From: an uncultured Lachnospiraceae bacterium
GTDB lineage: Bacteria; Bacillota; Clostridia; Eubacteriales; Anaerofustaceae
Assembly (NCBI GenBank): GCA_964368185.1
Contig: CAYJAA010000001.1
Coordinates: 13,959 to 67,924, forward strand
Direction of reading: 5' to 3'
DNA length: 53,966 bases
Part shown: positions 17,744-42,108 of the stretch, in pieces
Numbering within the stretch: the stretch's first letter is position 1
How the letters are laid out: the number at the start of each line of letters is the position of its first letter
Program-made: the position numbers and the translations under genes
The notes under the pieces: generated by a model
Databases searched by the model: none
The model's input: only the letters and a program-made list of their open reading frames with translations
What the model was told of the DNA's origin: nothing

Positions 17744-18394
17744 TTATATAATTCCCATTCCCTCATATAAAGAATGCATTTGACTTGAAATACGCTGATA
17801 CCAAGTTTGGTTTGAAGCATATCTTTTGTTAACCCCTTGTACAGTTTTCCCATTATACAAAGACCCATCTTCTGATAAATAATTTTCACTAAGAGCTTTT
17901 GCTACAACATCGATACATTCAGACTTTGAAGAAAATCCACTTCTACCAAATCCAAACATATTATTTTCTCTAAATAAAATCGTCCCCCAAGCACTTTCAT
18001 GAGCTGCAACAGCCATTAAAAATACACTGTTTACTCCATATTTTTCCTCAGCCTCTATAAAGTCTTTTTCAAGACCTACAAGGCCTCCTTTTGTAACTTT
18101 TTTAAGGTCTTCTTCGCTAACCCCACTAGGCTTAGTTAAGTCTAGAGAATATATTTTTTCGCTACTTGAAACAGAATCTTTTATCATCTCTTTTTCAAGA
18201 GCTAGTGTTGTATAAGATATAACTTCTTGTATATCTTCCTGTGCATGAGCGTTAAATGCTTCTACCGCTCCACTTTCGTCAATTTGTCTTATTATGTTTT
18301 CTTTAGTTTCTTTGTTATGTATAAAGATAGTAAGTAAAGTAGCTATAATAACTATTCCCACTATTATCATATGTTTTTTATTTATATTTTCCAT
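17744..18394 (-). CDS. Membrane-anchored GH73-type N-acetylglucosaminidase (peptidoglycan hydrolase)
   Basis: An N-terminal TM helix. FLMAVAAHESAWG....NNMFGFG resembles the glucosaminidase catalytic region. Confidence 0.7.
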   Translation of the reverse strand: MENINKKHMIIVGIVIIATLLTIFIHNKETKENIIRQIDESGAVEAFNAHAQEDIQEVISYTTLALEKEMIKDSVSSSEKIYSLDLTKPSGVSEEDLKKVTKGGLVGLEKDFIEAEEKYGVNSVFLMAVAAHESAWGTILFRENNMFGFGRSGFSSKSECIDVVAKALSENYLSEDGSLYNGKTVQGVNKRYASNQTWYQRISSQMHSLYEGMGII

Positions 18395-26197: not shown

Positions 26198-27730
26198 GTG
26201 GAAAAAGAAACAATAATAGTTTTAGATTTTGGTGGACAATATAACCAACTTATAGCAAGAAGAGTAAGGGATGAGAATGTATACTGCGAAATCTTACCTT
26301 ATGACACAGATATAAATAGATTAAAAGAAAAAAATCCTAAAGGAATTATCTTTACAGGAGGCCCCTCTAGTGTAAATGGAGAAAACTCTCCTTTTTGCTC
26401 TATGGAGGTTTTTGACCTTGGAATTCCTATTCTTGGGATATGTTATGGAATGCAACTAACTGCTAAAATGTTAGGAGGAGAAGTTGCTCCTTGTGAAAAA
26501 AGCGAATATGGAAAAGTTGAATTTACATATAATGAAAGTCCTTTATTTAAAGGAATAAACAAGGAAAGCTTTAATTCTTGGATGAGTCATACTGACCAAG
26601 TTTCTAAGGCTCCAAGTGGCTTTACTATAGACGGATACACCTCTACTTGCCCTGTAGCAAGTATGAGTAGCAAGGAAAAAAATATTTATGGTGTACAGTT
26701 TCACCCAGAGGTAACCCACTGTGAATATGGACAAGAAGTTCTTCACAACTTTTTATTTGAGGTTTGTAAGGTTAGTGGCTCTTGGTCAATGAAAAATTTT
26801 ACAAATATTCAAATTGAAAAAATAAAAAAAGAAGTTGGAGACAAAAAAGTTTTATGCGCCTTAAGTGGAGGAGTTGACTCTTCTGTTGCGGCTGTTTTAG
26901 TCCATAAAGCTATTGGGGACAACTTAACTTGTATCTTTGTAGATCACGGCCTTCTTAGAAAAGGGGAAGGTGACTATGTAGAAAAAACTTTTAAAGAAAA
27001 GTTTAATATGAATTTTATTAGGGTTAATGCCAGTGATAGATTTTTCTCTGCCCTTAAAGGGGTAAGTGATCCTGAGAAAAAAAGAAAAATTATTGGAAAT
27101 GAATTTATTAATGTTTTTGATGAAGAATCTAATAAGCTAGAAGATATTTCATACCTACTTCAAGGGACAATTTATCCTGATGTTATTGAAAGTGGAACAA
27201 AAGATGCGGCAGTTATTAAAAGTCACCACAATGTTGGAGGCCTGCCTGAGGATATGAAACTTGACTTAATCGAGCCTTTAAGAGAGCTTTTTAAAGATGA
27301 GGTTAGAAAAGTTGGTAGAGAGCTTGGTATTCCTAGTGAAATTGTTGAGCGTCAACCTTTCCCAGGCCCTGGTCTTGGAATACGAGTAATTGGAGAAGTT
27401 ACAAAAGAAAAAGTGGAAATCCTTCAAAATGCTGATCATATATTTACTAGTGCAATTGATAATATCAATGAAGATGGTAGCGTTTGGCAATACTTCGCAG
27501 TTCTTCCAGGAAATAGAACTGTTGGGGTTATGGGAGATGAGCGAACTTATGACTATACCATAGGCCTAAGGGCTGTGAGTAGTGTGGACGGAATGAGCGC
27601 CGACTTCTCAAGGCTAGATATGGAATTTTTAGGAAATGTAGCAAACAAGATAATCAACGAAGTGGATCATGTAAATAGAGTGGTTTATGATATTACATCT
27701 AAGCCACCTGGGACTATTGAGTGGGAGTAA
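26198..27730 (+). CDS. guaA: GMP synthase (glutamine-hydrolysing)
   Basis: GATase Cys in ICYGMQ, the ATP-PPase P-loop SGGVDSS, and the C-terminal GTIEWE. Confidence 0.97.
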
Positions 27731-27782
27731 GCCTTTACCTTTCTAAATCATATAGTCCATTTAAATAACTATATAAAAAGAT

Positions 27783-27826
27783 AAACAGGTAACTGATTTT
27801 TTGAAAATCTCTTACCTGTTTTTTGC
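27783..27826 (+). terminator. Rho-independent terminator after guaA
   Basis: Outer arms aaacaggtaa / ttacctgttt enclose an inner gatttt/aaaatc helix, followed by a T-tract. Confidence 0.75.
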
Positions 27827-27876: not shown

Positions 27877-28554
27877 TTAATTATTTGCCAGCAGATGTTT
27901 CAATTCAGAAATACTTATATATTTATCATTAAGTTTTCTGTGCAACATAGCATGGCAGTTAGGGCAAACAGGGATTAAGTCGGTTTCAGGATTAACAGAG
28001 TATTCCTCATTGATTTCACTTATAGCAACTATATGGTGTACATGGATAAAACCTTTTCCAATTTCACCATAAATATCTTCAAAGTTCATACCACATATAT
28101 GACAATAACAACCATAGTGATCAATGCATTTTTTTCTAGCTTCAGCACTTCGTTCATATTTATTAACGGTAACTGTTACTTTTGCACCTTCAATGCAACT
28201 ATCTGTTTGGTCAGAATCAGGAAATACCTCAGCACTTAAATTATTAAAATAATTGTCACTTAGAAATGTAAAAAACTGTGGCAATGCAGCACGGATATAA
28301 CCTTTTTCTAAATAAGATGACTGTCGTCTATCCTTTAAAAAAGTTAATAAGCTTTTGTAAAAATCACTATTTAAATCATATACGTAATCACTTATTTCTT
28401 TTATTCTATGTAGACTTTTTTCATTTATAATTGTTATCTCTAAAAATTCACAAAGATACTTAATAGCATTATGGTATGAGCGAGCTTTGCCAGATTCTAC
28501 CCCAGGAGTAGTGCAGAATATTTCGAATTCTTCTAACATAATTTTCATTTGCAT
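27877..28554 (-). CDS. HNH endonuclease with an uncharacterised N-terminal domain (restriction-like)
   Basis: The C-terminal CxxC...HVHHI....N......DLIPVCPNCHAMLH is a classical HNH/His-Me finger. The start could be the ATG at 28554 or at 28548. Confidence 0.8.
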   Translation of the reverse strand: MQMKIMLEEFEIFCTTPGVESGKARSYHNAIKYLCEFLEITIINEKSLHRIKEISDYVYDLNSDFYKSLLTFLKDRRQSSYLEKGYIRAALPQFFTFLSDNYFNNLSAEVFPDSDQTDSCIEGAKVTVTVNKYERSAEARKKCIDHYGCYCHICGMNFEDIYGEIGKGFIHVHHIVAISEINEEYSVNPETDLIPVCPNCHAMLHRKLNDKYISISELKHLLANN

Positions 28555-28695: not shown

Positions 28696-28930
28696 TTCAC
28701 CACCAACAAACACCTACTTTTTATTTTTTCCATCATACCACAAACCCTAAAATTTTACAATTATACTATCTCCTACCGCCAAACCCCTTTTTTAAAAGAA
28801 ATATTTACATTTTAATAGTGCATCACTTAAGAAAATCAAGAAATTATAATGTTTAATTTAGTAAAGTAATGATACAGTATACTTTGCGTATAAATGAATG
28901 TTATTTTTATAGCATAACAATATTTATCTG

Positions 28931-28959
28931 TTGACAAGATTGAAATCTTATGTTAAAGT
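28931..28959 (+). promoter_or_regulatory. Candidate promoter of the type I R-M operon (TTGACA-17-TAAAGT)
   Basis: A consensus -35 at 28931..28936 and a weak -10 at 28954..28959. The spacer contains the inverted repeat aagatt-ga-aatctt. Confidence 0.35.
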
Positions 28960-29009
28960 AAATTTAAAGAAATATTTCTCGATTTGCAATGTTATTTTTT
29001 TACCACAAC

Positions 29010-29615
29010 ATGAAAGAGGTGAGCGCTATTAAATTAAGTGAATTATGTGAGATAAGGACAGGCCTTATTCTCTCAAGAAAACAAGCTAAATCTAAAACCC
29101 AGTTTTACTATAAACAACTTACCCTTAAATCTATTGAAGACACTGGATATATTGCTATAAACTTTACTGAAGATTTTTATAGCAAAGAAGAGTTAAATCA
29201 AGACTACTTAACAAAAAAAAGGGATATCATCGTTAGGCTGTCCACCCCTTATACTGCTGTTTTAATAGATGAAGATAGAGAAAACTTGGTAATCCCTACT
29301 CATTTTGCAGTTGTAAAATGCAAGAAAAAGATAATCACTCCAAAGTATTTATATTGGTTTTTAAACTCTAAAATCGTAAAAAAAGAATATCTTAAAAACA
29401 ACACTAGTAATATGATAGGAGCAATTAGACCTTTATTTATAGGAGAGCTTGAAATTAAACTACCAACAATGGACAAGCAAGAAAAAATAGGAGAATTTAA
29501 TATTCTTGCTAAAAAAGAAGAATATTTACTAACTAAATTAGAAAAAGAAAAATCTAAATATACAAGTTTCATACTTGAAAATCTTTATATGAAAGGAAAT
29601 AAAAATGACAACTAA
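29010..29615 (+). CDS. hsdS: Half-size type I specificity subunit (single target-recognition domain)
   Basis: About 200 aa: one TRD followed by a conserved helical tail (LPTMDKQEKIGEFNILAKKEEYLLTKLEKEK). It overlaps the hsdM start by 11 nt. The start is uncertain: ATG 28989, ATG 29010, or an in-frame ATT at 29028 behind AAAGAGGTG. Confidence 0.7.
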   Translation: MKEVSAIKLSELCEIRTGLILSRKQAKSKTQFYYKQLTLKSIEDTGYIAINFTEDFYSKEELNQDYLTKKRDIIVRLSTPYTAVLIDEDRENLVIPTHFAVVKCKKKIITPKYLYWFLNSKIVKKEYLKNNTSNMIGAIRPLFIGELEIKLPTMDKQEKIGEFNILAKKEEYLLTKLEKEKSKYTSFILENLYMKGNKNDN

Positions 29616-31134
29616 AACAGATATCCAAAACACTCTTTGGAAAGCTTGTGATAGCTTTCGTGGAAAAATCGACAGTTCAAGATATAAAGACTATATCCTA
29701 TCTATGCTTTTTGTAAAATACCTTAGCGATGTAAACAAAGAGAGAAAAGCTGAATATGAAAAGCAATATAATGGAGACGCCGATAGAATAAAAAGAGCTA
29801 TGAGCCGTGAGCGATTTGCCCTTGACGAAGTTTCAACTTTTGACTATTTATATGAAAATAGAGGGGACAGTGAAATAGGACAAAAAATAAACATCGCCCT
29901 TTCCCATATTGAAGAACACAACAGCGGCAAACTTCGCAATGTTTTTAGAGCTATTGACTTTAACTCTCAAGTTGATTTTGGTGAGGCTCGTGAAAAAAAT
30001 GCTGTTCTTAAAAATTTACTCTCTGATTTTTACGAGCTTGACTTAAGCCCTTCTAACCTAGATAGTAGCGATATAATCGGGGACGCTTATGAATATATGA
30101 TAGCCAACTTTGCCTCTGATGCAGGGAAAAAGGGTGGAGAATTTTTCACCCCAAGCACTGTTTCAACCCTTGTTGCAAAACTTGTTAAACCAAAGGAAAA
30201 TGACAGGATTTACGACCCGACTTGTGGGAGTGGTGGGCTACTTCTAAAGGCTTATAAAGAGGCTCCAAGCAAAAAAGTTGCCATATATGGACAGGAGAAA
30301 AATGCACAAACTTGGGCGCTATGTACTATGAATATGTTTTTACATAACATTGATGATGCAAACATTAAACAAGGGGACACCCTTGCTAACCCTCAGCATT
30401 TAGAAAATGATGAACTTATGAAATTTCAAGTAATCTGTGCTAATCCTCCTTTCTCATTCGATAAGTGGGACAGTGGGTTTTTAGGGGAAGTTACAACCGA
30501 CAGTAAGAAAAAAGCAAAAATGGAAGCAAGCCTTGACCCTTATAAAAGATTTTCTATGGGAGTTCCTCCCTCTTCTAAGGGAGACTATGCTTTTGTTTTA
30601 CACATGCTTGCTAGCTTAGATGCAAATGGTGGAAGAATGGCTGTTGTTCTTCCTCATGGGGTTCTTTTTAGAGGAGCCAGTGAGGGAAAAATTCGTAGGG
30701 AAATTATTGACATGAACTTACTAGACGCAGTTATCGGCCTACCATCTAATTTATTTTTTGGAACAGGGATTCCTGCTTGTATTTTAGTCTTTAAGAAAAA
30801 TCGCCCTAACCGTGACATACTTTTTATTGACGCAAGTGGAGAGGGAAACTTTGAAAAGGGTAAAAATCAAAATGTACTTCGCATAGAAGATATTAAAAAA
30901 ATAGTCTCTACATATGAAAGCCGTGAGACTTTAGAAAAATATAGCTATAAGGCTACACATGAAGAGATAAAAGAAAATGATTATAACCTAAATATTCCAC
31001 GATATGTGGATACTTTTGAGGAAGAAGAAATGGTGGATATTGAGGTGGTTAAGGAAAGTATTAAGAATATAGAAAAAGAGCTTAAAGAAGTGCAAGAGAA
31101 GATGAAAAAATATTTGGAGGATATGGGGGTGTAA
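29605..31134 (+). CDS. hsdM: Type I restriction-modification N6-adenine DNA methyltransferase
   Basis: The HsdM N-terminal domain (LWKACDSFRG), SAM motif DPTCGSGGLL, and catalytic NPPF. Confidence 0.95.
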   Translation: MTTKTDIQNTLWKACDSFRGKIDSSRYKDYILSMLFVKYLSDVNKERKAEYEKQYNGDADRIKRAMSRERFALDEVSTFDYLYENRGDSEIGQKINIALSHIEEHNSGKLRNVFRAIDFNSQVDFGEAREKNAVLKNLLSDFYELDLSPSNLDSSDIIGDAYEYMIANFASDAGKKGGEFFTPSTVSTLVAKLVKPKENDRIYDPTCGSGGLLLKAYKEAPSKKVAIYGQEKNAQTWALCTMNMFLHNIDDANIKQGDTLANPQHLENDELMKFQVICANPPFSFDKWDSGFLGEVTTDSKKKAKMEASLDPYKRFSMGVPPSSKGDYAFVLHMLASLDANGGRMAVVLPHGVLFRGASEGKIRREIIDMNLLDAVIGLPSNLFFGTGIPACILVFKKNRPNRDILFIDASGEGNFEKGKNQNVLRIEDIKKIVSTYESRETLEKYSYKATHEEIKENDYNLNIPRYVDTFEEEEMVDIEVVKESIKNIEKELKEVQEKMKKYLEDMGV

Positions 31135-31142
31135 ATGGTATT

Positions 31143-32123
31143 ATGTTTGAACTATATTCACAAAGGATAAAAAATCAAGAGGGTGAGTCAGAGGTTTTCA
31201 TTTATAATGAATTTTCCAGCAAGTTTAGAAATCAATTTATTTACTGCGTGAAAGATTGTTATAATAGTATGGAGGGGAAAATAGATAAAATTAATAGAAA
31301 TATTGACTTTTTTCCTGATGCATATGAAATAGGCTTTCTTTGCCTTGATAGCATGGCTGAGCTTATATATAGCATATTTAAAAGGGAAAAAGGACTAGGA
31401 GATGAAGTCGGTTCCGATTGGGATGACTTAACAAAGTACATACAAGAATGTGATAATACTGACTTTTTAGATATGATGGATTTAATAGCACATTTGATTT
31501 TTAATAAATCAAAAAATATATTTTCTGACATATTTGGCGAAAACATATTTAAAAATCACTTTAGTGGATATATAGATGATGGAATTAACCATATCAACCT
31601 TAGACTAAAAGAAAATTTACTAGGCTACGAAATAATAGATGGAAAAGTTATAGCTAAAACCAACACAGTAACCCACGAACATATTATAAAACCAGCATTA
31701 AAACTATTGATAGATGAAGATTTTCGAGGAGCTGAAGAAGAATATTTATTAGCATTTGAAAACTTTAAAAATGGCGAAAATGAAAATGCTATAATTAATG
31801 GAAATAAAGCCTTTGAAAGTGTCCTAAAGACTATTTGTGGAAAGCTAGAATATCAATACGACCCTTCAAAAGCCTCGGCTAAAAAATTACTAAACATTTT
31901 AGAGGAAAATAATTTTTTCCCAGGTTATTTAAAAAACCATTTATCATCTTTAATAAATTCTCTTGAAACTGGAGCTCCAGTGATAAGAAATAAAGTAGCA
32001 GGACATGGACAAGGGGAAAATGTCCGAAAAGTGGGAGATGAATATGTTGAATATGTTTTAAATTTAACTGCCACCAACATATTATTTCTCTACAAAATCT
32101 ATAAAGGCAAGGTGGCTAAATGA
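31143..32123 (+). CDS. Abi-like protein with a C-terminal HEPN-type motif (AbiJ / Abi_C-like), embedded between hsdM and hsdS
   Basis: The N-terminus MFELYSQRIKNQ...VFIYNEF resembles what I remember of the AbiJ-NTD4 / STM4504-type N-termini. The C-terminal PVIRNKVAGHGQG gives R282-x5-H288 (31986..32006), which fits the Rx4-6H HEPN signature. Its stop overlaps the hsdS start (ATGA). Confidence 0.6.
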   Translation: MFELYSQRIKNQEGESEVFIYNEFSSKFRNQFIYCVKDCYNSMEGKIDKINRNIDFFPDAYEIGFLCLDSMAELIYSIFKREKGLGDEVGSDWDDLTKYIQECDNTDFLDMMDLIAHLIFNKSKNIFSDIFGENIFKNHFSGYIDDGINHINLRLKENLLGYEIIDGKVIAKTNTVTHEHIIKPALKLLIDEDFRGAEEEYLLAFENFKNGENENAIINGNKAFESVLKTICGKLEYQYDPSKASAKKLLNILEENNFFPGYLKNHLSSLINSLETGAPVIRNKVAGHGQGENVRKVGDEYVEYVLNLTATNILFLYKIYKGKVAK

Positions 32124-33316
32124 ACAATGAAATAAAAGAGCGAATCACCAAAATACAAAATGGGGAAATCCCTAAGGGGTATAAAAAAACGAAAGTTGGA
32201 ATTGTGCCTAGTGAGTGGGAAGTTAAGAAGTTGGGGGAAGTTGCAAAAACTTATTCTGGTGGAACACCAAACACTAATAATAAAGAATATTATTTAGGAA
32301 CCATTCCTTTTATTCGCTCCGCTGAAATTGATAAAAAACGGACTGAATTATTCATTTCTAAACAAGGCTTAAACAGCTCATCTGCAAAAGAAGTAATTGT
32401 AGGCGACTTGTTATACGCCCTATATGGCGCTAATAGCGGAGAATGTGCTATATCCAAACAATGTGGAGCAATAAACCAAGCTGTATTATGTATCAAAAGC
32501 TCCGAAAATGTTAAATATTTATACTACTTCCTTTCAAGCAATAAAATAAAAATTATTAACACTTATTTACAAGGAGGGCAAGGCAATTTATCTGCACAAA
32601 TAATGAAAAACATCAAACTCCCTCTCCCACCCCTACCCGAACAAAACACAATAGCCGAAATACTAAGTACTGAGGATAAAGTAATTGAGCTTAAAGAAAA
32701 GCTTATCGAAAAAAAAGAAGCTCAAAAAAAATACTTAATGCAAAATCTCCTAACAGGTAAAAAAAGGCTTACAGGGTTTCGTGGGGAGTGGAATAAGGTG
32801 AGGTTGGGGGAGGTTTGTGAGATTATTAAAGGCTCTCAACTTAATAAAAATACTCTTTCAGAATATGATAAATACTATGTTCTAAATGGTGGCATTACTC
32901 CGTCAGGATATACAGACAATTGGAATGTAGAAAAAAATACTATTTCAATCAGCGAAGGTGGAAATTCATGTGGATTTGTAAATTATAATACGGAAAATTT
33001 TTGGAGTGGTGGACATTGTTACACATTGCAAGATTTAAGTATTAACATGGAAAATTTATTTTTATATTTTACTCTTAAATATAAGCAACAAACTTTAATG
33101 GAACTAAGAGTTGGGTCGGGCTTACCAAATATTCAAAAAAAATCTTTATTGAATTTCAAAGTCAACCTCCCACCCCTTGACGAACAAAAGACAATCGCTG
33201 AAATTTTATCCACTGCTAATAAAGAAATTGAACTTTTAAAAGCTGATTTAGAAAAAGAAAAAGAAAAGAAAAAAGCATTAATGCAGTTGTTGCTAACTGG
33301 GATTGTGAGGGTGTAA
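32120..33316 (+). CDS. hsdS: Full-length type I specificity subunit (two TRDs)
   Basis: Two TRDs, each followed by a conserved repeat (LPLPPLPEQNTIAEILST... and LPPLDEQKTIAEILST...). Confidence 0.93.
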   Translation: MNNEIKERITKIQNGEIPKGYKKTKVGIVPSEWEVKKLGEVAKTYSGGTPNTNNKEYYLGTIPFIRSAEIDKKRTELFISKQGLNSSSAKEVIVGDLLYALYGANSGECAISKQCGAINQAVLCIKSSENVKYLYYFLSSNKIKIINTYLQGGQGNLSAQIMKNIKLPLPPLPEQNTIAEILSTEDKVIELKEKLIEKKEAQKKYLMQNLLTGKKRLTGFRGEWNKVRLGEVCEIIKGSQLNKNTLSEYDKYYVLNGGITPSGYTDNWNVEKNTISISEGGNSCGFVNYNTENFWSGGHCYTLQDLSINMENLFLYFTLKYKQQTLMELRVGSGLPNIQKKSLLNFKVNLPPLDEQKTIAEILSTANKEIELLKADLEKEKEKKKALMQLLLTGIVRV

Positions 33317-33319
33317 AGT

Positions 33320-34165
33320 ATGAGTACTAATAAGAAAAAATTCAACACCCTTGCTAATAAAGATGAACTGCTGGAATTTCTATATACTAAAGGGAAAAAC
33401 CATAATGAGTATCATCATTATACCACTTTTGACAATGCTATTAAAATAATCAAAAATAAATCATTTTTTCTAACCCGTGGCAATTCTACAAGTATGAATG
33501 ACCAACATGAACCAACCATCAATGAAGATAGTAATATATGGGATAAAACCTACATTGGCAGTTTTGCATTTGGAGGAAATGAAAATATGGCAATGTGGGG
33601 TTTGTACGGTTTACCAAAAGAAAATGCTGTACGAATAACAATTCCGAAAAAAGCTATGGAATCTTGGTTTGATAGCATAAACGAAATTCACGGAATTACT
33701 ATAGAAAATAATGTTCCTGAATATAAGAGTGTAAATAACAAATTTGATAAATATTTATCTGATATAGTGTATATTGACACTATACAAGATCCGAATTTAT
33801 CAAAACTTTATTGGAATGATAACTCCTTGAGGATTAAACCATCAGAAAGCATAACCTCCATTGCAGATGAATTAGATATGATAGGGTTTATTAAAAATTT
33901 TGCTTGGAAATATGAAAATGAAGTTCGCCTTCTTATTCGCACGGAACCTAATACAAAGCATGAAAAAATTAGTGTTAACATACCCGAAGAAGTTACTAAG
34001 AATATATCTATTACAGCTGGACCATGTTTTAACGGCGATATAGGCGAAAGATTGAAAGAAAACCAATGCGATAACAAAGTATCTGAAAGTATATTTAAGG
34101 GCTTAGTGAACTACAAAATTTTATGCAGTATGTGCTTGCATGAAAATTTTATAAATAAGGAGTAA
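33320..34165 (+). CDS. DUF2971-like protein embedded between hsdS and hsdR
   Basis: Motifs as I remember them for DUF2971: YHHYTTFDNAIKIIKNKSFFLTRGNSTSMNDQHE, GSFAF..NENMAMWGLYG, and WKYENEVRLL. The gaps are 3 nt after hsdS and 4 nt before hsdR. Confidence 0.6.
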   Translation: MSTNKKKFNTLANKDELLEFLYTKGKNHNEYHHYTTFDNAIKIIKNKSFFLTRGNSTSMNDQHEPTINEDSNIWDKTYIGSFAFGGNENMAMWGLYGLPKENAVRITIPKKAMESWFDSINEIHGITIENNVPEYKSVNNKFDKYLSDIVYIDTIQDPNLSKLYWNDNSLRIKPSESITSIADELDMIGFIKNFAWKYENEVRLLIRTEPNTKHEKISVNIPEEVTKNISITAGPCFNGDIGERLKENQCDNKVSESIFKGLVNYKILCSMCLHENFINKE

Positions 34166-34169
34166 AATA

Positions 34170-37100
34170 ATGCTAAAAGACCTATACTTAGAAAAAAACA
34201 TCAGCCAAACCCCAGCCATAGAGCTACTTAAATCTATGGGATACATATATATTCCCCCAGAGGAGGCCCTAAGAAAGCGAGGGAGTAAATACGATGTTAT
34301 CTTAAAAGATATTCTTCGCTCACAGCTTAAAAAGCTAAATACATACACTTTTGGAGGAGAGAAAAAGGAGTTTTCCCCTGGTAATATTGAGCGTGCTATA
34401 GAAGATATAAACCTACCCCTAAATGACGGGCTTATTAAGTGTAGTGAAAAAATATTTAATATGCTCCTACTTGGTAATAGCTACTTAGAACTTCTAGGAG
34501 ATGGGAAAAGCCTTAGCTTTAATCTAAAATATATTGACTGGGATAATTTTGATAATAATGTATTTCATGTAACTGAAGAATTTTCTGTAGAAAGTCTTGA
34601 TAAAGAACATAACGCAAGGCCGGATATAGTGTTATTTATTAATGGAATTCCCTTTGGGGTTATTGAGTGTAAAACTCCACAAATTTCAGTAGAGCAAGGG
34701 ATAGAACAAATGGTTAGGAACCAAAAAACAGAGTGGATCCCTCAACTTTTTAAATTCACTCAAATTCTTGTGTCTACAAATAAAAACACTGTAAAATATG
34801 CTACCACAGGAACACCAAAAAAGTTTTGGTCTATTTGGCGAGAAGAAGACAAGAGTTTTTTAGAAAATCAACTTAATATCCATATTAAAAATAGACAAAA
34901 GACTATTCAAGATGAAAATATTATTTCACTTTTCTCAAAGGATAGAGTGAAAGACTTAATAAAATATTTTGTTTTATACGATGCTAATATTAAGAAAATT
35001 TGCAGATACCAACAATACTTTGCAATCAAAGAAGCAATGAAAACTATCACTACTTTTGACAAAAAAGGAAATCGCAAAAGTGGTGTTGTTTGGCATACCC
35101 AAGGAAGTGGAAAAAGCCTTACTATGGTTATGTTAGCAAAATTATTATTACAAGAGTTATCAAAACAAAACCCTAAAGTTATTATCATAACCGATAGGAA
35201 AGAACTAGATAACCAAATCGCAAAAACCTTTTCCCACACAAGATTAAATCCAGCAAAGGCAGCAAGTGGCAAACACTTAGTAGAGCTTATAGATAGCCAT
35301 AAAGCAGATGTTATTACTACGATAATTAATAAATTTAATACCGCTGAAAAAATGGACAGTAAAAATTTATCAAAGGATATATTTGTTCTTGTTGATGAAA
35401 GCCACCGTTCAAACTATGGTGGCCTTGCAACAAAAATGCGAACAGTTTTCCCAAATGCCTGCTATATAGGTTTTACAGGAACACCCCTTATGAAAAAAGA
35501 AAAAAACACAATGGCAAAGTTTGGGGACTTAATCCATAAATACACTATCAAAGATGGCGTAGAAGATGGAGCGATTGTTCCCTTAATTTATGAGGGAAAA
35601 TTTGTAGATCAAAATGTTGATGAAGAAAATATAGACTTATGGTTTAAACAAGTAACAAAAAGACTTAACGAAAAAGAAAGAAAAGATTTAAAAGACAAGT
35701 GGAGTAGCATTAGGCGCCTAACTTCAACTGATTCAAGAATTAAAAGAATAGCTCTTGATATTGATGAGCATTTTACTGGGGGTTATAAAAATACAGGCTT
35801 TAAAGCCATGCTTGCAACCAACTTTAAAAAAGATGCCGTTAGGTATTTAGAGTGTTTTGAAACTTTTTCTGATTTAACTTGTGCTGTTATAATCTCTCCC
35901 CCAGATATCAGGGAGGGGGCTGAAAATATTGATGATGAAATAGACGATAAAGTTCGTAAATACTGGGATAAGATGATAAAAGCTTATGGAGATGGGGACA
36001 AATATGAAGAGGCTATCAAAAATAAATTTTTAGATGGAGAAATTGATATTTTAATAGTTTGTAGCAAACTTTTAACAGGCTTTGATGCCCCAAGATGTCA
36101 AGTTTTATACATAGACAAAGAATTAAAAGAACATGGACTTCTTCAAGCTATTGCCAGAACAAATAGACTTTATGAGGGGAAAGATTATGGACTAATCGTT
36201 GATTATAGAGGGCTTATTACAAGGCTTAATGATGCTATGGATACTTATACTGGAGCAGGTCTTGAAAACTTTGAAGGTGGAGATTTAAAGGGAACGATTG
36301 TGGATATAATCTCTGTTATAGCTAGCTTAAGAGAGGCAAATAGCAATCTTTGTCAGCTATTTATCACATTAAAAAATAGTCAAGATACCGAAGAAGTAGA
36401 AAGTTATTTAGCTGATGAAAAAATTAGAGAAAGCTTTTATGATTTTGTATGCGCTTTAGGTAAGCATTTATCTATGACAATGAATTCAGAAGTTGTTTAT
36501 GAAACTATTGATAGAAAAGAGCTAAAAACTTATCAAGATAATTTTATTTTTTATTCAAAAGTTAGAAGAAGTGTTAAAGTTAGATATCATGATGCAATAG
36601 ACAATAATGAGTATGAACCCTTAATGCAAAATCTTCTTGATACTCATTTATCCGTAGCAGGACTTAATCAAATCACAAAGCCTGTTGACATATTAAATAA
36701 AGATGAATTTGAAAAAGAAATTGAAGAGCTTACCTCCCTTAAGGGAAAAGCCGATGCAATCACTAGCAGTATGACAAAGGCAATTAGTGAAAGGCGTGAT
36801 GAAAATCCTGCTTATTATGATAGCTTTTCTGAAAAAATAAAGTCCGCATTAGAAGAGTATAAAGATAAAGTTATATCAGAAAGTGAATACCTTGCAAAAA
36901 TGAAGTCTATTCTTGCAGACTTTAGAGAAAATAAAACCGATATAACTTACCCTAGTGAAATAAAAAAGAATTTACACGCCCAAGCTTTCTACGGAGTTAT
37001 TTGCGCTATACTGGATAATGAAATTAATATAAATGATTATAGTGAGATTATAACTTATGCTACTATAGAAATTACAAAAATAATCGAAAAATACAACCAA

Positions 37101-37262
37101 GTAGACTGGTCGACTAATACTACAATCCATAAAAAAATAGCACAAGAAATAGATGACTTATTCTATGAAATAGAAAAAGAAAAAGCTTTAAAATTAACAT
37201 TTGATGCTATTGACATGATTATAGAAAATGTGAAAACCGTTGCTCTTAGGAGGTTTAAATGA
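34170..37262 (+). CDS. hsdR: Type I restriction enzyme R subunit (helicase-nuclease)
   Basis: An N-terminal PD-(D/E)xK-like region (RPDIVLFINGIPFGVIECK), Walker A TQGSGKSLTM, a DESHRS box, and motif VI QAIARTNR. Confidence 0.95.
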   Translation: MLKDLYLEKNISQTPAIELLKSMGYIYIPPEEALRKRGSKYDVILKDILRSQLKKLNTYTFGGEKKEFSPGNIERAIEDINLPLNDGLIKCSEKIFNMLLLGNSYLELLGDGKSLSFNLKYIDWDNFDNNVFHVTEEFSVESLDKEHNARPDIVLFINGIPFGVIECKTPQISVEQGIEQMVRNQKTEWIPQLFKFTQILVSTNKNTVKYATTGTPKKFWSIWREEDKSFLENQLNIHIKNRQKTIQDENIISLFSKDRVKDLIKYFVLYDANIKKICRYQQYFAIKEAMKTITTFDKKGNRKSGVVWHTQGSGKSLTMVMLAKLLLQELSKQNPKVIIITDRKELDNQIAKTFSHTRLNPAKAASGKHLVELIDSHKADVITTIINKFNTAEKMDSKNLSKDIFVLVDESHRSNYGGLATKMRTVFPNACYIGFTGTPLMKKEKNTMAKFGDLIHKYTIKDGVEDGAIVPLIYEGKFVDQNVDEENIDLWFKQVTKRLNEKERKDLKDKWSSIRRLTSTDSRIKRIALDIDEHFTGGYKNTGFKAMLATNFKKDAVRYLECFETFSDLTCAVIISPPDIREGAENIDDEIDDKVRKYWDKMIKAYGDGDKYEEAIKNKFLDGEIDILIVCSKLLTGFDAPRCQVLYIDKELKEHGLLQAIARTNRLYEGKDYGLIVDYRGLITRLNDAMDTYTGAGLENFEGGDLKGTIVDIISVIASLREANSNLCQLFITLKNSQDTEEVESYLADEKIRESFYDFVCALGKHLSMTMNSEVVYETIDRKELKTYQDNFIFYSKVRRSVKVRYHDAIDNNEYEPLMQNLLDTHLSVAGLNQITKPVDILNKDEFEKEIEELTSLKGKADAITSSMTKAISERRDENPAYYDSFSEKIKSALEEYKDKVISESEYLAKMKSILADFRENKTDITYPSEIKKNLHAQAFYGVICAILDNEININDYSEIITYATIEITKIIEKYNQVDWSTNTTIHKKIAQEIDDLFYEIEKEKALKLTFDAIDMIIENVKTVALRRFK

Positions 37263-37993
37263 GTGAAACTTCTAAGAAAAAATACTTAAGCGTAGATAGC
37301 CGAGTTATTAAATATACACTAATTCAAAAAGATGTAAAAAATATTAACCTTAGAATAAAATCAAATGGGGAAATTTCTATTTCTGCAAATAAATCCGTCA
37401 GCCTAAGCCACATAGAAAATTTTATTAAAAATAAGTCTAGCTTTGTATTTAAACACTTAGATAAATTCGAAGATATGAAAAAATACACTCCTAGCAAAAA
37501 GAAGTACATAAGTGGGGAAAGCTTTTTACTTCTTGGAAAATCTTTACGCCTTAAAGTTTTAGTGTCTGAAAAAGAAAATGTGTATACTGATGGAGTTTAT
37601 CTTTTTTTAGAAGTTAAAAACAAAGGTGACTTTAAGAGAAAAGAAAAACTTATAAATACTTTCTTTGATGAAAAATGTAAAGAGTATTTTAAAGAAGTAG
37701 CAAATGATATTTATCCCATATTTAAAAAATACGACATAATCTACCCTATTATTAAAATCCGTTCTATGACATCAAGGTGGGGATCTTGTATTCCTTTAAA
37801 AAACCAAATCACACTTAACAAAAAACTTATTGAAGTGCCAAAAAATTCCATAGAATATGTTGTTCTACATGAATTTGTACACTTTATTCATCCAAATCAT
37901 TCAAAAAAGTTTTATAACTTCTTGACTATGCTTATGCCAGACTGGAAAGAGAGAAAAAGGGTTCTTGAAACTTATGCTTTTAGAGTGGAATAA
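37259..37993 (+). CDS. M48-family / DUF45 (YgjP-like) zinc metallopeptidase
   Basis: HEFVHFIHPNHSKKF is an HExxH motif in the typical YgjP context. Its ATG overlaps the hsdR stop (ATGA). Confidence 0.85.
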   Translation: MSETSKKKYLSVDSRVIKYTLIQKDVKNINLRIKSNGEISISANKSVSLSHIENFIKNKSSFVFKHLDKFEDMKKYTPSKKKYISGESFLLLGKSLRLKVLVSEKENVYTDGVYLFLEVKNKGDFKRKEKLINTFFDEKCKEYFKEVANDIYPIFKKYDIIYPIIKIRSMTSRWGSCIPLKNQITLNKKLIEVPKNSIEYVVLHEFVHFIHPNHSKKFYNFLTMLMPDWKERKRVLETYAFRVE

Positions 37994-38051
37994 TTGTAGG
38001 GACACAAAAAATTACTAAACAACAAAAGTTAAAACAAAGGAGGTAAATTTA

Positions 38052-39377
38052 GTGAAAGAAATCAAATGCCCAAAATGCGGGGAAGCTTTTACAGTTGATG
38101 AATCAGGATATATGGCAATTGTAAAACAAGTTAGAGATGTAGAGTTTCAAAAGGATTTAGAGGAAAGGCAAAGGCTTTTCACTGAGGCTAAGGAAAGTGA
38201 GCTTAACCTATTAAAGACAGAAGCTAAACATAATCTTGATAAAAGTCTTAGTCAGTCACAAGAAGAAATAAACAAACTAAAAGCTATTATTGAGGCCTCT
38301 AAAAGAACTAGTGATGGTGAGCTTGAAATAGCTAAAATAAAGGCTAAGGCTACTTTAGAAGAAAAATTGTCTGAATCAAAACAAGAAATAGAGCGCCTAA
38401 GGGGTGAAATTCAAAAATCTGAAATGGAAAAATCCCTTGCTATTAGTGAAGAATCTGCAAAAGGAAAGTCTGCTATTGCCAGTAAAGAACAGGAAATAAT
38501 GAAGCTAAAGTTGGAGGCTGAAAGTGTTCAGTCCTCTACAAAGCTAAAAATAAAAGTCCTTGAAGACTCCTATAAAGAAAAGCTTTTAGAAAAAGAAGAA
38601 CAAATTAGCTTTTATAAAGACCTAAAAGCAAGACAGTCCACTAAAATGCTTGGAGAAACTTTAGAACAGCACTGTGAGATAGCCTTTAATCAAATAAGGG
38701 CAACTGGCTTTAGAAGTGCGTACTTTGAAAAGGACAACGATGCAAGGAGCGGAAGCAAAGGGGACTATATTTTCAGGGAGCATACTGAGGGTGGTGTGGA
38801 GTTTATTTCTGTTATGTTTGAGATGAAAAACGAAATGGACACTACTGCTACCAAAAAGAAAAACGAAGACTTTTTAAAAGAGCTTGATAAAGATAGAAAT
38901 GAAAAAGGGTGTGAATATGCAGTGTTAGTTTCCCTTTTAGAATCAGACAACGAATATTATAATAGTGGTATTGTTGATATGTCTCACAGATACCCTAAAA
39001 TGTATGTTATTCGCCCACAATTTTTTATACCTATAATCACTCTTCTTAGAAACGCTGCATTAAACGCAGTAGAGTATAAAGAACAGCTCATTGAAGTTCG
39101 TAACCAAAACATCGATATTTCTAATTTTGAAAATGATATTATGGATTTTAAAAATAAATTTAGCTATAATTATGACTTAGCAAGTAGAAAGTTTCAAACT
39201 GCTATTAAAGAAATTGATGAGACTATTAAACATCTTGAAAAAACTAAAGCCGCCCTATTATCTTCTGAAAACAACTTAAGGCTTGCAAATGATAAAGCGC
39301 AAGATTTAACTATTAAAAAACTTACAAAAAACAACCCTACTATGAAAGAAAAGTTTGATGAGATAAAAGGAGAATAA
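38052..39377 (+). CDS. DUF2130-like protein: zinc ribbon, long coiled coil, and a PD-(D/E)xK-like C-terminal domain
   Basis: CPKCGEAF at the N-terminus, about 170 aa of E/K-rich heptads, then GDYIF...(17)...FEMKNE (D238, E257, K259; 38763..38828). GTG start behind AAGGAGGT. Confidence 0.7.
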
Positions 39378-39382
39378 ATGCA

Positions 39383-40102
39383 ATGAGTAATACGGCATAT
39401 CAAGATAAAAGTAAGACTATACTTATTAGTGCTAAAGAAGCTACTTATAAAAACAATAAACATTATTACTGTAAAAATAAAGAATGTTGTGCAATTTTAT
39501 ATCTTAGGAACAGTGATGGAATCAAATCAGCTCACTTTTGTGCTTATGCAAAGCATCCACACATACATGGTTGCTATGAAGGAATATCTAACTTTAAACT
39601 TGACAACTTTAAAGAGAATGAATTTAACTTTGATGAGTCAATAAATAATTTATCTAAAGACGGAAAAAGCACAGAAAAAAAGACCGCAACTGAGCTTCAA
39701 AAAAAAGAAACAGCTACTAGAAATTTGTCCGCTGATAGACCTTTAAAAAGCTTACGAGAAATATATTATATGTGTAAATCAAAAAAAATCAATGATAAAT
39801 ATTCAACTATAAAAATATCACATATGCTTGCAGATGAAAGAACTATGAAAATATATCAAGTATATGGACCAATAGGGGTTCGTATTGTTGAGTGCACTTA
39901 TATAGATCATGATTCTGAAAAAAATCAGATATTTATGGATTATTATGGAATGGAATTGACCCTTAATCTAAATAATCGTTTGTTTGAGGAAATAAATGAA
40001 AAATTACATATAAATAGAGAGCATAAAATTGCTATTTGTGGTGACTGGAGTGCTCGATCTGTTAGAATAACATCTAAAAGGCAGATTTATATTATAAAGT
40101 GA
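39383..40102 (+). CDS. Hypothetical protein with a Cys/His-rich N-terminal (zinc-ribbon-like) region
   Basis: YYCKNKECCAILYLRNSDGIKSAHFCAYAKHPHIHGC. It begins 5 nt after the DUF2130 stop, with AAAGGAGAA inside that gene's 3' end. I could not assign a family. Confidence 0.5.
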   Translation: MSNTAYQDKSKTILISAKEATYKNNKHYYCKNKECCAILYLRNSDGIKSAHFCAYAKHPHIHGCYEGISNFKLDNFKENEFNFDESINNLSKDGKSTEKKTATELQKKETATRNLSADRPLKSLREIYYMCKSKKINDKYSTIKISHMLADERTMKIYQVYGPIGVRIVECTYIDHDSEKNQIFMDYYGMELTLNLNNRLFEEINEKLHINREHKIAICGDWSARSVRITSKRQIYIIK

Positions 40103-40320
40103 GTGTGATGACAAATTGACAACATTTTTCTGTAATAATCCTAATAGATATGATAATACAGAGAAAAACAGTATTAGTTTACACGCTTTTTTGAATACAA
40201 TTTAAGTGCAATTTTTTATTTACGAAGAATAATAAGGTAGTAATTCTCATATAATAATATCATTACATTATTGAAGGTATTATATTTATGAGAAGTGCAA
40301 GCCGAACAGAAAGGATAGTT

Positions 40321-42060
40321 ATGAATATAAAACCTGTTGATAAAACAATAAGAGAACTTTTATTGTCAAGGAATCAATTTATTATACCACGTTTCCAAAG
40401 GGAATATTCTTGGGATAAGAAAAATTATAGCGAATTTCTTGAAGATATGGTGAAATGCCTAGAAATCAATGGTGGTAAAATATCACCTACTCAATATTTT
40501 ATTGGTACTATGCTTTTCGTTGGAGATAAAGACGAACTACAAAAACAACAACAGAGCATGGATGTAGTTGATGGACAACAAAGACTGACAACTATAACCA
40601 TATTGTTTTCTGCATTATCAGATATATTTAAAATCGAAAATGAAAAACTTCTAAGCGAACAACTTTTTAAATATATAATGACTACCGATGATAACGGAGA
40701 CCCTATACGAATATTAAAAAGCAAAACTCATTATCCTTTTTTTGCAGACTATATTCAATCAAGTGAGAAACTCGAACTTAATGATCCTTCAAGTGAAGAA
40801 GAGCAGTGTATAAAAAATACATATGATTTTTTTATAGAGATCTTAGCCGAAAATAAAATTAGACAGCTACTGCAAAAAGATTTTGGAACCGCCGACATCG
40901 ACCAATGTAGTTATATAGATATTTTAAAAGCTATAAGGGATCAAGTGCTTAATTGCACATTTGTATCAATATATACAAAAAACAAAAATCAAGCTAACAT
41001 GATTTTTGAAATACTAAATGCAAAGGGAAAAAAATTATCTAGTATCGATTTGATTAAAAATAAGATATTTGAATTGCTTGATAAAAAAGAACCATCAGAT
41101 TTTGCCACAATTACGTGGCAGGAGATTAAAGCAATCTTGAATGATGAAAATTGTGATGTTGGATTTGCAACATTTTATCGTCACTTTTGGCTTTCGAGAT
41201 ATAAAAAGTCATCAGATGCTAAATTATATGATGATTTTGTTAGCAAAATAAAAAAGAATAAAGAGGGGTATATTGAATTTTTAAAACAATTATTAAATGA
41301 TGCTAATTTATATGCAAAAATTGTAAACCCTCAAAGACAACACTTCAATAATAGAAAAGAGTATTTTGGTGTGGTTCAATCATTAAATGCTCTCTCAAAT
41401 ACATTTAACATATCACAATCTAGAATTGTTATATTAGCATTAATGAATGTAAAGTCTAAGAAGTTAATATCATTAACTGATTTTAAAAAATGCCTGTATT
41501 TTATTGAAAATTTTCATTTGGCATATAATGCGATAGGTGGTTTACCAACGAATAGACTAGAATCGATTTACTCAAAGCGTGCCATTGCGTTAAATAACGC
41601 TGATAATAAAATTGCTGTAAAAATGCAAATTTCAGAATTAAAGAAAAGTTTATCTGATATTTACATTTCATATCCTGATTTTGAAGAAAAGTTCAAACTA
41701 TTAACTTACACAAAAAAATCTGTTGCTTCAAATACTAGAACAAAATATGTTATACAAAAAATTAATTCATACTTTGAGCAGAGTGAAATTTTCTCTGATG
41801 ATTTAAGCATAGAACATATTTCTCCTGAAACAGAAAATGCAAATAATATTAATATTGGGAATTTAATTGCGTTAGAACTTGCAATAAATAAAGACGCAGA
41901 TATGTTAGGTTATTCAAAAAAGAGATCAGTATACAAGAGCTCTAAATATACTTGGGTTAATGATTTCATCAGCAAACATAAAACATGGGATCAAAAAGAT
42001 TACAATGATAGAGCCAGAGATTTAGCAAGATTATACTATCAAGAAATATTAAAAAAATAA
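40321..42060 (+). CDS. DUF262/DUF1524 (GmrSD-like) type IV restriction-type nuclease
   Basis: N-terminal IPRFQREYSW and DGQQRLTT (ParB/DUF262-like). C-terminal LSIEHISPE....IGNLIALE..INK (His-Me finger/DUF1524-like). I moved the start to the ATG at 40321, behind GAAAGGA. Confidence 0.85.
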   Translation: MNIKPVDKTIRELLLSRNQFIIPRFQREYSWDKKNYSEFLEDMVKCLEINGGKISPTQYFIGTMLFVGDKDELQKQQQSMDVVDGQQRLTTITILFSALSDIFKIENEKLLSEQLFKYIMTTDDNGDPIRILKSKTHYPFFADYIQSSEKLELNDPSSEEEQCIKNTYDFFIEILAENKIRQLLQKDFGTADIDQCSYIDILKAIRDQVLNCTFVSIYTKNKNQANMIFEILNAKGKKLSSIDLIKNKIFELLDKKEPSDFATITWQEIKAILNDENCDVGFATFYRHFWLSRYKKSSDAKLYDDFVSKIKKNKEGYIEFLKQLLNDANLYAKIVNPQRQHFNNRKEYFGVVQSLNALSNTFNISQSRIVILALMNVKSKKLISLTDFKKCLYFIENFHLAYNAIGGLPTNRLESIYSKRAIALNNADNKIAVKMQISELKKSLSDIYISYPDFEEKFKLLTYTKKSVASNTRTKYVIQKINSYFEQSEIFSDDLSIEHISPETENANNINIGNLIALELAINKDADMLGYSKKRSVYKSSKYTWVNDFISKHKTWDQKDYNDRARDLARLYYQEILKK

Positions 42061-42073
42061 ATATATAATATTT

Positions 42074-42108
42074 AAAGACACAAATCTTAAATAAATTTGT
42101 GTCTTTTT
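42074..42108 (+). terminator. Rho-independent terminator after the GmrSD-like gene
   Basis: aaagacacaaat / atttgtgtcttt, then a short T run. Confidence 0.8.

Follow-up and report, generated by a model that had tools for sequence, protein, structure and literature searches.

The window analysed here is a 53,966-nucleotide stretch of DNA from an uncultured Lachnospiraceae bacterium (GenBank assembly GCA_964368185.1, contig CAYJAA010000001.1, positions 13,959 to 67,924). On its forward strand, nine co-directional open reading frames (ORFs), designated g1 to g9 (Table 1), span positions 28989 to 40102. It was found that g2, g4, and g6 constitute a type I restriction-modification (R-M) system made up of HsdM, an HsdS with two target-recognition domains, and an HsdR combining a nuclease with a superfamily 2 (SF2) translocase. 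A sequence-only reading of the same DNA had described a type I R-M operon with nested effector-like extra genes, and the profile matches and the gene positions agree with this description. I consider it likely that the block is a type I R-M core with two filled cargo slots and an appended tail, and that the cargo consists of interchangeable stand-alone defence genes. The locus is a typical example of a documented class. The main value of the present analysis is the correct annotation of the block, namely a five-gene core, two occupied slots, and an appended tail rather than a nine-component machine.

The constant core and its variable slots

Which of the nine genes are constant in related systems? 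I performed a tblastn comparison with all of the window proteins, covering 80 related loci whose HsdR sequences are 48–89% identical to that of g6. The loci come from Clostridia, Bacilli, Fusobacterium, Spirochaetes, and Methanoperedens. The g2-encoded HsdM matches HsdM_N and N6_Mtase (E 1e-106), scores 313 bits with TIGR00497, far above the curated cutoff, and is 61–88% identical to its counterparts in the related loci. HsdR (g6) has HSDR_N, SWI2_SNF2, T1R_D3-like, and T1RH-like_C domains and matches TIGR00348 with 513 bits (E 1.8e-153), which is also far above the curated cutoff. The nearest solved structure by sequence is the HsdR of EcoR124I, a type IC enzyme (E 2.7e-41, mainly over residues 111–510). 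Judging from these matches, the R-M system probably belongs to a widespread IC-like type I clade. HsdS (g4) has two target-recognition domains and matches Methylase_S in two stretches (E 3.8e-60), likewise well beyond the curated cutoff. It is just 26–51% identical across the loci, and its identity correlates poorly with that of HsdR (Spearman 0.33). Conserved segments at the start, centre, and end of HsdS match those of the closest relative, L001 (HsdR 89% identical).

The first ORF, g1, matches Methylase_S of Pfam (E 4.8e-07) and Specificity_I of PADLOC and encodes a half-size HsdS that has one target-recognition domain. Of 57 related loci, 51 have a half-hsdS homologue directly 5′ of hsdM, and g1 is a constant component of the clade rather than a passenger. 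The half-hsdS was also considered as an inverting shufflon partner. This was rejected: no supporting inverted repeat was found, and g1 and g4 lie on the same strand.

A metallopeptidase gene, g7, closes the conserved block. Its product matches PF01863 (E 1.2e-54) and carries the zinc-site motif HEFVH (HExxH), as is found in the YgjP-like/SprT family. A YgjP-like gene lies directly 3′ of hsdR in all of the 76 loci, among the 80, that extend far enough past hsdR, with a junction of -34 to +13 nucleotides (nt). The identity of the YgjP-like protein tracks that of HsdR (Spearman 0.72, n = 73). Matches of g7 on plasmids revealed a protease gene directly after hsdR also in Acinetobacter (half-S, M, S, NucS, Abi, R, protease), Deinococcus (M, MazE, MazF, S, Fic, R, protease), Vibrio (M, S, one ORF, R, protease), and Escherichia coli (R, protease). 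A Bacillus thuringiensis homologue of g7 is unlinked to R-M genes. On this comparison, g7 is a constant and translationally coupled partner of hsdR and not cargo. Thus, the five passengers counted by the sequence-only reading are an overcount, since the YgjP-like gene always follows hsdR and the half-hsdS is likewise constant. The core of the clade, as far as the loci compared can tell, is half-hsdS, hsdM, hsdS, hsdR, and the YgjP/SprT-like metallopeptidase gene.

Because of the invariable position in the related loci, the occurrence across phyla, and the co-varying identities, it may be speculated that hsdR and the metallopeptidase gene form a functional unit. The protease might target HsdR complexes, in restriction alleviation or in the clearing of stalled translocases, or else phage anti-restriction proteins. 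This is a tentative proposal; as a functional partner of HsdR, the protease would most likely control or clear HsdR complexes. A proteolytic link with HsdRMS might seem to gain support from the SprT-like anti-restriction protein ArdC. This argument was rejected, because the protease activity of ArdC is not needed for its anti-restriction activity (PMC7213743). In the literature library searched, no experimental work on a linkage of HsdR with a COG1451, DUF45, YgjP, or SprT protease was found. For specialists, the pairing of HsdR with a metallopeptidase is the most useful lead, and it is clade-wide rather than special to the window.

Two junctions of the core vary widely in length. The gap between hsdM and hsdS varies between about 0 and 3.1 kb; of 59 loci, 40 have 400 nt or more and 18 have less than 100 nt. 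For hsdS and hsdR, the gap is about 0 to 2.7 kb long and reaches 400 nt or more in 22 of 70 loci. The Bacillaceae loci are compact and cargo-free, consisting of half-S, M, S, R, and protease genes. The ORFs that occupy the junctions fall into about 60 unrelated clusters, and 96 of 98 are co-directional with the operon. Their domains include DUF4145 (nine ORFs), RhuM (six ORFs), and Bro-N (five ORFs), as well as SMODS, SAVED, S_4TM, and TIR (parts of CBASS are among the contents), KwaB, AbiEii-type AAA, YhcG, and DpnII. MazEF, Fic, HAD hydrolases, and phosphatases are also found there. The hsdM-hsdS and hsdS-hsdR junctions are, on this evidence from sequence, the standard variable cargo slots of the clade. 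Since several of the loci, for example L008 with seven and L024 with six, have more embedded ORFs than the operon in the window, this operon is not unusually expanded, contrary to what the sequence-only reading had supposed.

In the window, g3 fills the first slot and g5 the second. Both lie on the strand of the operon, between R-M genes, in slots that are variable among the related systems, as is the case for embedded genes. None of g3, g5, g8, g9, and g10 (the gene that follows the block) was found in or downstream of the operon in any of the 80 loci, except for a partial g3-like match in L001. For four of the five passengers, the lack of co-occurrence that the sequence-only reading had named as a refutation was thus observed; unrelated genes fill the slots instead. 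The DNA homology between the window and L001 covers 29187–31121 (the end of the half-S gene and hsdM), three segments of hsdS, and 34148–37992 (hsdR and ygjP). It stops at the stop codons of hsdM, hsdS, and ygjP and resumes at the start of hsdS. The homology to another locus, L002, also ends at the stop codon of ygjP. Thus, the breaks at gene borders indicate that g3 and g5 are clean cassette replacements and that g8 and g9 lie outside the conserved block. No direct or inverted repeats of the insertion type were seen around g3, g5, or g8-g9 in an island-wide search, which gave only A/T-rich chance matches. Therefore, a transposon-like insertion is not supported.

Such embedding is known from several systems. 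Payne et al. (2024; bioRxiv 10.1101/2024.01.29.577857) reported, under the term 'guilt-by-embedding', that BREX, DISARM, and type I R-M loci harbour embedded genes in the thousands, of which 96.7% are co-oriented; PDC models were derived from embedded genes, and HEC-06 was validated. TgvAB and rloF are also type I R-M-embedded genes, and TgvAB has been studied experimentally (PMC11411939), where the Campylobacter rlo genes are cited from Miller et al. (2005) as an older example. The present locus shares with the genes of Payne et al. and the rlo genes the co-directional extras between hsdM, hsdS, and hsdR and the variable contents between related loci. In addition, g3 and g5 weakly match PDC-S32 and PDC-S31, respectively, and a GmrSD/HEC-06-type enzyme is associated. 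In contrast, g8 and g9 are appended after the last constant gene and not nested.

The embedded genes g3 and g5

The product of g3 has an AbiJ-NTD4 N-terminus (AbiJ_NTD4, E 4.6e-16) and an AbiJ-type HEPN C-terminal domain, without an ATPase domain. It matches DUF7014 (Pfam, E 1.1e-26) and scores 175 bits with NF046078 (the STM4504/CBY_0614 family) against a cutoff of 150. The HEPN motif is RNKVAGH, which is of the Rx4-6H type. Thus, g3 is assigned from its sequence as an AbiJ-type HEPN protein of the STM4504/CBY_0614 family and a predicted RNase effector. AbiJ-NTD4 was defined on CBY_0614 itself (Anantharaman et al. 2013, PMC3710099), and AbiJ-type proteins have shown antiphage activity in other hosts (PMC13590631). 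Members of the g3 family occur on 335 plasmids and stand alone in all three of the plasmids inspected. The partial match in L001 (40% identity over 31% of g3) lies on the opposite strand at about 17929–18035, roughly 4.5 kb downstream of ygjP; this gene, resembling the AbiJ-NTD4 region, is in the neighbourhood of the operon and not embedded in it.

The assignment of g5 to DUF2971 is borderline by sequence, because its score of 21.6 bits (E 5.5e-4) is just under the Pfam gathering threshold of 22. There are 128 homologues of g5, and the residues H33-Y34-T35, Y96, and E199-x-E201 are invariant, as seen in 42 homologues compared. In the AlphaFold2 (AF2) model (pLDDT 89), the six best fold matches in the PDB are all DarT (E 3e-4 to 3e-3), followed by a large gap. 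Thus, the DUF2971-like character noticed by the sequence-only reading survives as a weak match backed by a DarT-like fold, although the score does not reach the Pfam threshold. The model suggests that g5 is a predicted enzyme of the DUF2971 family with a DarT-like ADP-ribosyltransferase (ART) fold and H-Y-E-type motifs including ExE. The ADP-ribosyltransferase superfamily has been reported to include DUF2971 (PMC12522546). Antiphage activity of a DUF2971 protein has been shown in another host with Aristaios (PMC11381338), a single-gene DUF2971 system of about 300 amino acids with a predicted ADP-ribosyltransferase fold, which is comparable to g5 at the family level only. Aristaios is borne on a lactococcal plasmid and has not been reported to be R-M-embedded, while g5 is embedded and scores below the Pfam threshold.

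A DarTG2 system between hsdS and hsdR has been studied experimentally, and the site was called a potential recombination hotspot (PMC12255303). A DarT-type ADP-ribosyltransferase fold in the hsdS-hsdR slot is common to that locus and the window. Unlike DarTG2, g5 is DUF2971 rather than DarT proper, and it has no adjacent DarG macrodomain antitoxin: its flanks are hsdS and hsdR, and no protein of the block has a macrodomain match. The first gene of the DarTG2 locus is RptR-like, whereas that of the operon in the window is the half-hsdS. In the related locus L104, a 44% identical g5 homologue occupies the same hsdS-hsdR slot, followed after hsdR by ygjP and a GmrSD gene. Other homologues of g5 are not part of R-M loci and have KAP NTPase genes or unrelated genes as neighbours; a tblastn search of plasmids with g5 gave no match. 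The locus adds two R-M-embedded candidates to those known, an AbiJ-NTD4/HEPN gene and an antitoxin-less DarT-like gene, both barely detected by the PADLOC models.

Could the embedded genes be gated by the R-M enzyme? The sequence-only reading had drawn an analogy with the E. coli prr locus, in which the anticodon nuclease PrrC is embedded in the hsdMSR genes of EcoprrI. In a composite of this kind, one or more passengers, most plausibly g3 or g5, would be bound and kept latent by HsdMSR and would fire after inactivation of the R-M enzyme by an anti-restriction protein of a phage. The analogy is fair for gene position. Both loci have a HEPN-type effector inside an IC-like type I operon and share the logic of layered defence; the HsdR of the window most closely resembles type IC, to which EcoprrI belongs, and g3 and g5 are joined to their neighbours by translational coupling or gaps of 3–8 nt. 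The recurrence of a g5 homologue in the same slot of L104 also favours a composite, and the same gating was proposed in 2013 for R-M-linked HEPN families, AbiJ solos included (PMC3710099). The analogy fails in other respects. PrrC is an ABC-ATPase-HEPN fusion physically masked by EcoprrI, but none of the passengers carries its ABC-ATPase sensor domain. According to Payne et al. (bioRxiv 10.1101/2024.01.29.577857), PrrC is found embedded in type I R-M systems and hardly anywhere else, which distinguishes it from the families of g3 and g5, the former standing alone on plasmids and the latter lying beside KAP NTPases or unrelated genes. None of the 80 related loci has either gene in its operon. 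Because their relatives are mostly without adjoining R-M genes, the families of g3, g5, g8, and g9 cannot require HsdMSR for latency. The stand-alone relatives argue against an obligate PrrC-type arrangement while leaving room for local functional coupling. I regard a PrrC-like composite as improbable.

The sequence-only reading had also held that the combination of genes is undescribed. The exact cargo set was indeed in none of the loci examined, whereas both the embedding and the idea of gating have been published. The combination of g3, g5, g8, and g9 is new but expected from the combinatorial filling of slots.

The appended genes g8 and g9

The g8 protein belongs to DUF2130 (PF09903, E 1.8e-87) and has an N-terminal CxxC ribbon, a coiled coil, and a PD-(D/E)XK-type domain. 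DUF2130 has been listed as a PD-(D/E)XK family (Steczkiewicz et al. 2012, PMC3424549). Relatives that are about 53% identical occur solo on plasmids of Lactococcus, Bradyrhizobium, Arthrobacter, and Mitsuaria, and some are found among insertion sequence (IS) elements or metabolic genes. On the Lactococcus plasmid pNP40 (L081, 7001–10871), a phage-resistance plasmid, a DUF2130 gene is directly followed by a gene for a TrlF-family AAA-like ATPase. This pair sits between LlaJI-type R-M genes and an Abi gene and may be a two-gene unit.

For g9, no match was found in Pfam, NCBIfam, PADLOC, or PHROG. A word-seeded homologue search returned g9 alone, while a full HMMER scan gave 203 representative-cluster relatives, forming a family of about 250 amino acids. 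In this family, C30, C35, F52, and H60 are invariant and C64 is near-invariant. The AF2 model (pLDDT 91) has weak OB-fold matches in the PDB for its C-terminal half (E about 0.02). It is probable from the model that g9 consists of an N-terminal Cys2-His-Cys Zn-ribbon and a C-terminal OB fold. The homologues are solo, beside toxin-antitoxin (TA) and partition genes, including those on Lactobacillus plasmids. As far as the sequences indicate, g9 represents an unnamed Zn-ribbon/OB-like family whose members lie on plasmids and in defence islands. The effector-like signatures noted by the sequence-only reading are real, namely the HEPN motif of g3, the HExxH motif of g7, the PD-(D/E)XK domain of g8, and the Cys/His module of g9 (C30, C35, H60, and C64). 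The DUF2130 gene and the Zn-ribbon/OB-like gene are two unclassified candidates for antiphage activity.

The 61 nt after the stop codon of g9 (40107–40167) are 84% identical to positions 4589–4649 of L002, which lie about 500 nt downstream of ygjP. This match suggests that the insertion of g8 and g9 separated ygjP from an older flank downstream.

The extra genes might have no defence role at all and be selfish or addictive hitch-hikers, that is, toxin-like genes and mobile-element leftovers in a permissive 'genomic sink', an idea cited by Payne et al. (bioRxiv 10.1101/2024.01.29.577857). The MazEF, Fic, HAD hydrolase, and phosphatase genes in the slots of other loci are consistent with this idea, as are the plasmid TA and partition genes adjoining the g9 relatives and the IS elements or metabolic genes around the g8 relatives. 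Against it, recognised defence domains dominate the slot contents, nearly all slot ORFs are co-oriented, which points to their expression along with the operon that hosts them, and DUF2971 and AbiJ-type proteins act against phages in other hosts. Thus, I give the hitch-hiker idea little weight. A dedicated two-gene R-M accessory module of g8 and g9, for example an extra nuclease and a DNA-binding partner acting with HsdR, would fit the short gap between the two genes, their direction, and the 58-nt distance from ygjP with a strong ribosome-binding site and no terminator, but it is very unlikely, because neither gene is in any of the 80 related loci, the DNA shared with L001 and L002 extends no further than the stop codon of ygjP, and the two genes do not accompany each other elsewhere. 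Four DUF2130 contexts lack a g9 homologue, and eight loci with a g9 homologue (five distinct contexts) lack DUF2130. An obligate g8-g9 pair was rejected on these grounds.

Returning to a core with interchangeable stand-alone cargo, the following scheme may be drawn. From the tight junctions, g3 and g5 would be read from the R-M promoter and thus be co-regulated and co-transferred with the R-M genes. Since the homology breaks sharply at gene borders, homologous recombination in the conserved hsdM, hsdS, and hsdR flanks would be the simplest mechanism of cargo exchange. By family-level precedent, each cargo protein would sense infection and act alone, resulting in a layered defence. The R-M enzyme would cut unmodified DNA and the GmrSD enzyme modified DNA, while the HEPN and ART proteins would serve as abortive or toxic back-ups.

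Several points weigh against this scheme. A defence activity of g3, g5, g8, and g9 themselves is a prediction, and even where a family is autonomous elsewhere, its copy in the window may still depend on the HsdMSR beside it. The PADLOC matches of g3 and g5 are weak (28.5 bits with PDC-S32 and 22 bits with PDC-S31), and g8 and g9 match no PADLOC model. The TM-scores between g5 and DarT are modest (0.32–0.44). Since g9 is without a recognisable catalytic domain, its role may be regulatory or lie outside defence. Finally, a promoter-like match lies ahead of g8 at 37965–37994, and g8-g9 could have their own promoter. Because of this match and a weak hairpin with a T-run 3′ of g9 (about 40100–40192), g8-g9 may or may not share a transcript with the R-M genes.

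Junctions, transcription signals, and the surrounding island

All of the nine ORFs, with the coordinates and junctions given by the sequence-only reading, were recovered (Table 1). The half-hsdS overlaps hsdM by 11 nt (29605 versus 29615), and a gap of 8 nt separates hsdM from g3. The stop codon of g3 overlaps with the start codon of hsdS as ATGA, and the same overlap joins hsdR to g7. The gaps on the two sides of g5 are 3 nt (from hsdS) and 4 nt (to hsdR), and that between g8 and g9 is 5 nt. The 58-nt spacer between g7 and g8 carries AAGGAGG ahead of the GTG start codon of g8; it is unstructured (-3.6 kcal/mol, not better than shuffles).

Table 1. Features of the R-M block and its immediate flanks in the window
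Feature	Assignment	Position	Strand	Remark
g1	half-hsdS	28989-29615	+	
g2	hsdM	29605-31134	+	
g3	AbiJ-NTD4/HEPN cargo	31143-32123	+	hsdM-hsdS slot
g4	full-length hsdS	32120-33316	+	
g5	DUF2971/DarT-like cargo	33320-34165	+	hsdS-hsdR slot
g6	hsdR	34170-37262	+	
g7	YgjP-like/SprT-family metallopeptidase	37259-37993	+	
g8	DUF2130 protein	38052-39377	+	after conserved R-M block
g9	Cys2-His-Cys/OB-like family member	39383-40102	+	
g10	GmrSD-family type IV enzyme	40288-42060	+	outside nine-gene block
Terminator	intrinsic terminator	42074-42108	+	12-bp stem and T-run
Promoter	candidate sigma-70-type promoter	28931-28959	+	TTGACA-17-TAAAGT, extended -10 TG

No terminator-like site was found on the forward strand in any intergenic gap of the nine-gene block. 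The first strong one downstream is the hairpin starting at 42074 (-11.9 kcal/mol versus -3.5 for shuffles, z = -4.45), as had been noted from the sequence only. The promoter proposed at 28931 fared less well. The consensus match is present in the 435-nt intergenic region 5′ of g1, but it is a candidate only, because matches of such quality are no commoner in the region (77) than expected from shuffles (77.1). A 23-nt direct repeat flanks this candidate promoter; its two copies (28897–28919 and 28988–29010) are 91 nt apart and 87% identical. An operator comparable to the RptR direct repeats of the enteropathogenic E. coli (EPEC) island is one possibility, and a chance match in A/T-rich DNA is another. 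An in-frame ATG at 29010 is an alternative start codon of g1 and may be the true one.

The region is a defence island of roughly 14 kb downstream of guaA, lying between guaBA and the crp/hcp genes. The guaA region covers 26198–27821 and includes a terminator-like hairpin at 27783–27821; the island begins right after guaA. No integrase gene was found in the window. Since guaA is also just upstream of related R-M loci in L011, L026, and L033 (from Lachnotalea and from metagenome-assembled genomes of Oscillospiraceae and Spirochaetes), the 3′ flank of guaA looks like a recurrent insertion site of this R-M island. Between guaA and the R-M operon, a 225-amino-acid ORF on the reverse strand (27877–28554) has an HNH domain and a weak PADLOC match to type IV methyl-directed restriction endonucleases (E 1e-05), and it may be a further small defence gene.

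Downstream of the block, g10 encodes GmrSD_N (DUF262, E 6.6e-35) and GmrSD_C (DUF1524) in one protein and matches PADLOC HEC-06 over the full length (E 4.3e-70). From these matches, g10 is assigned as a HEC-06-like, modification-dependent type IV restriction enzyme of the GmrSD family. GmrSD genes follow ygjP in L001 as well as in L104. A GmrSD-family type IV enzyme together with type I R-M, covering modified and unmodified DNA, is also found in the TgvAB-type arrangement. In that arrangement, a two-gene unit is nested in the operon, whereas g10 is a single-protein GmrSD gene located downstream with its own upstream region of 185 nt and the terminator at 42074–42108 behind it. Elsewhere in the window, an FMN riboswitch at 1707–1833, which scores 107.6 bits and so exceeds the gathering score, precedes the ORFs at 1914–2903 and is unrelated to the operon.

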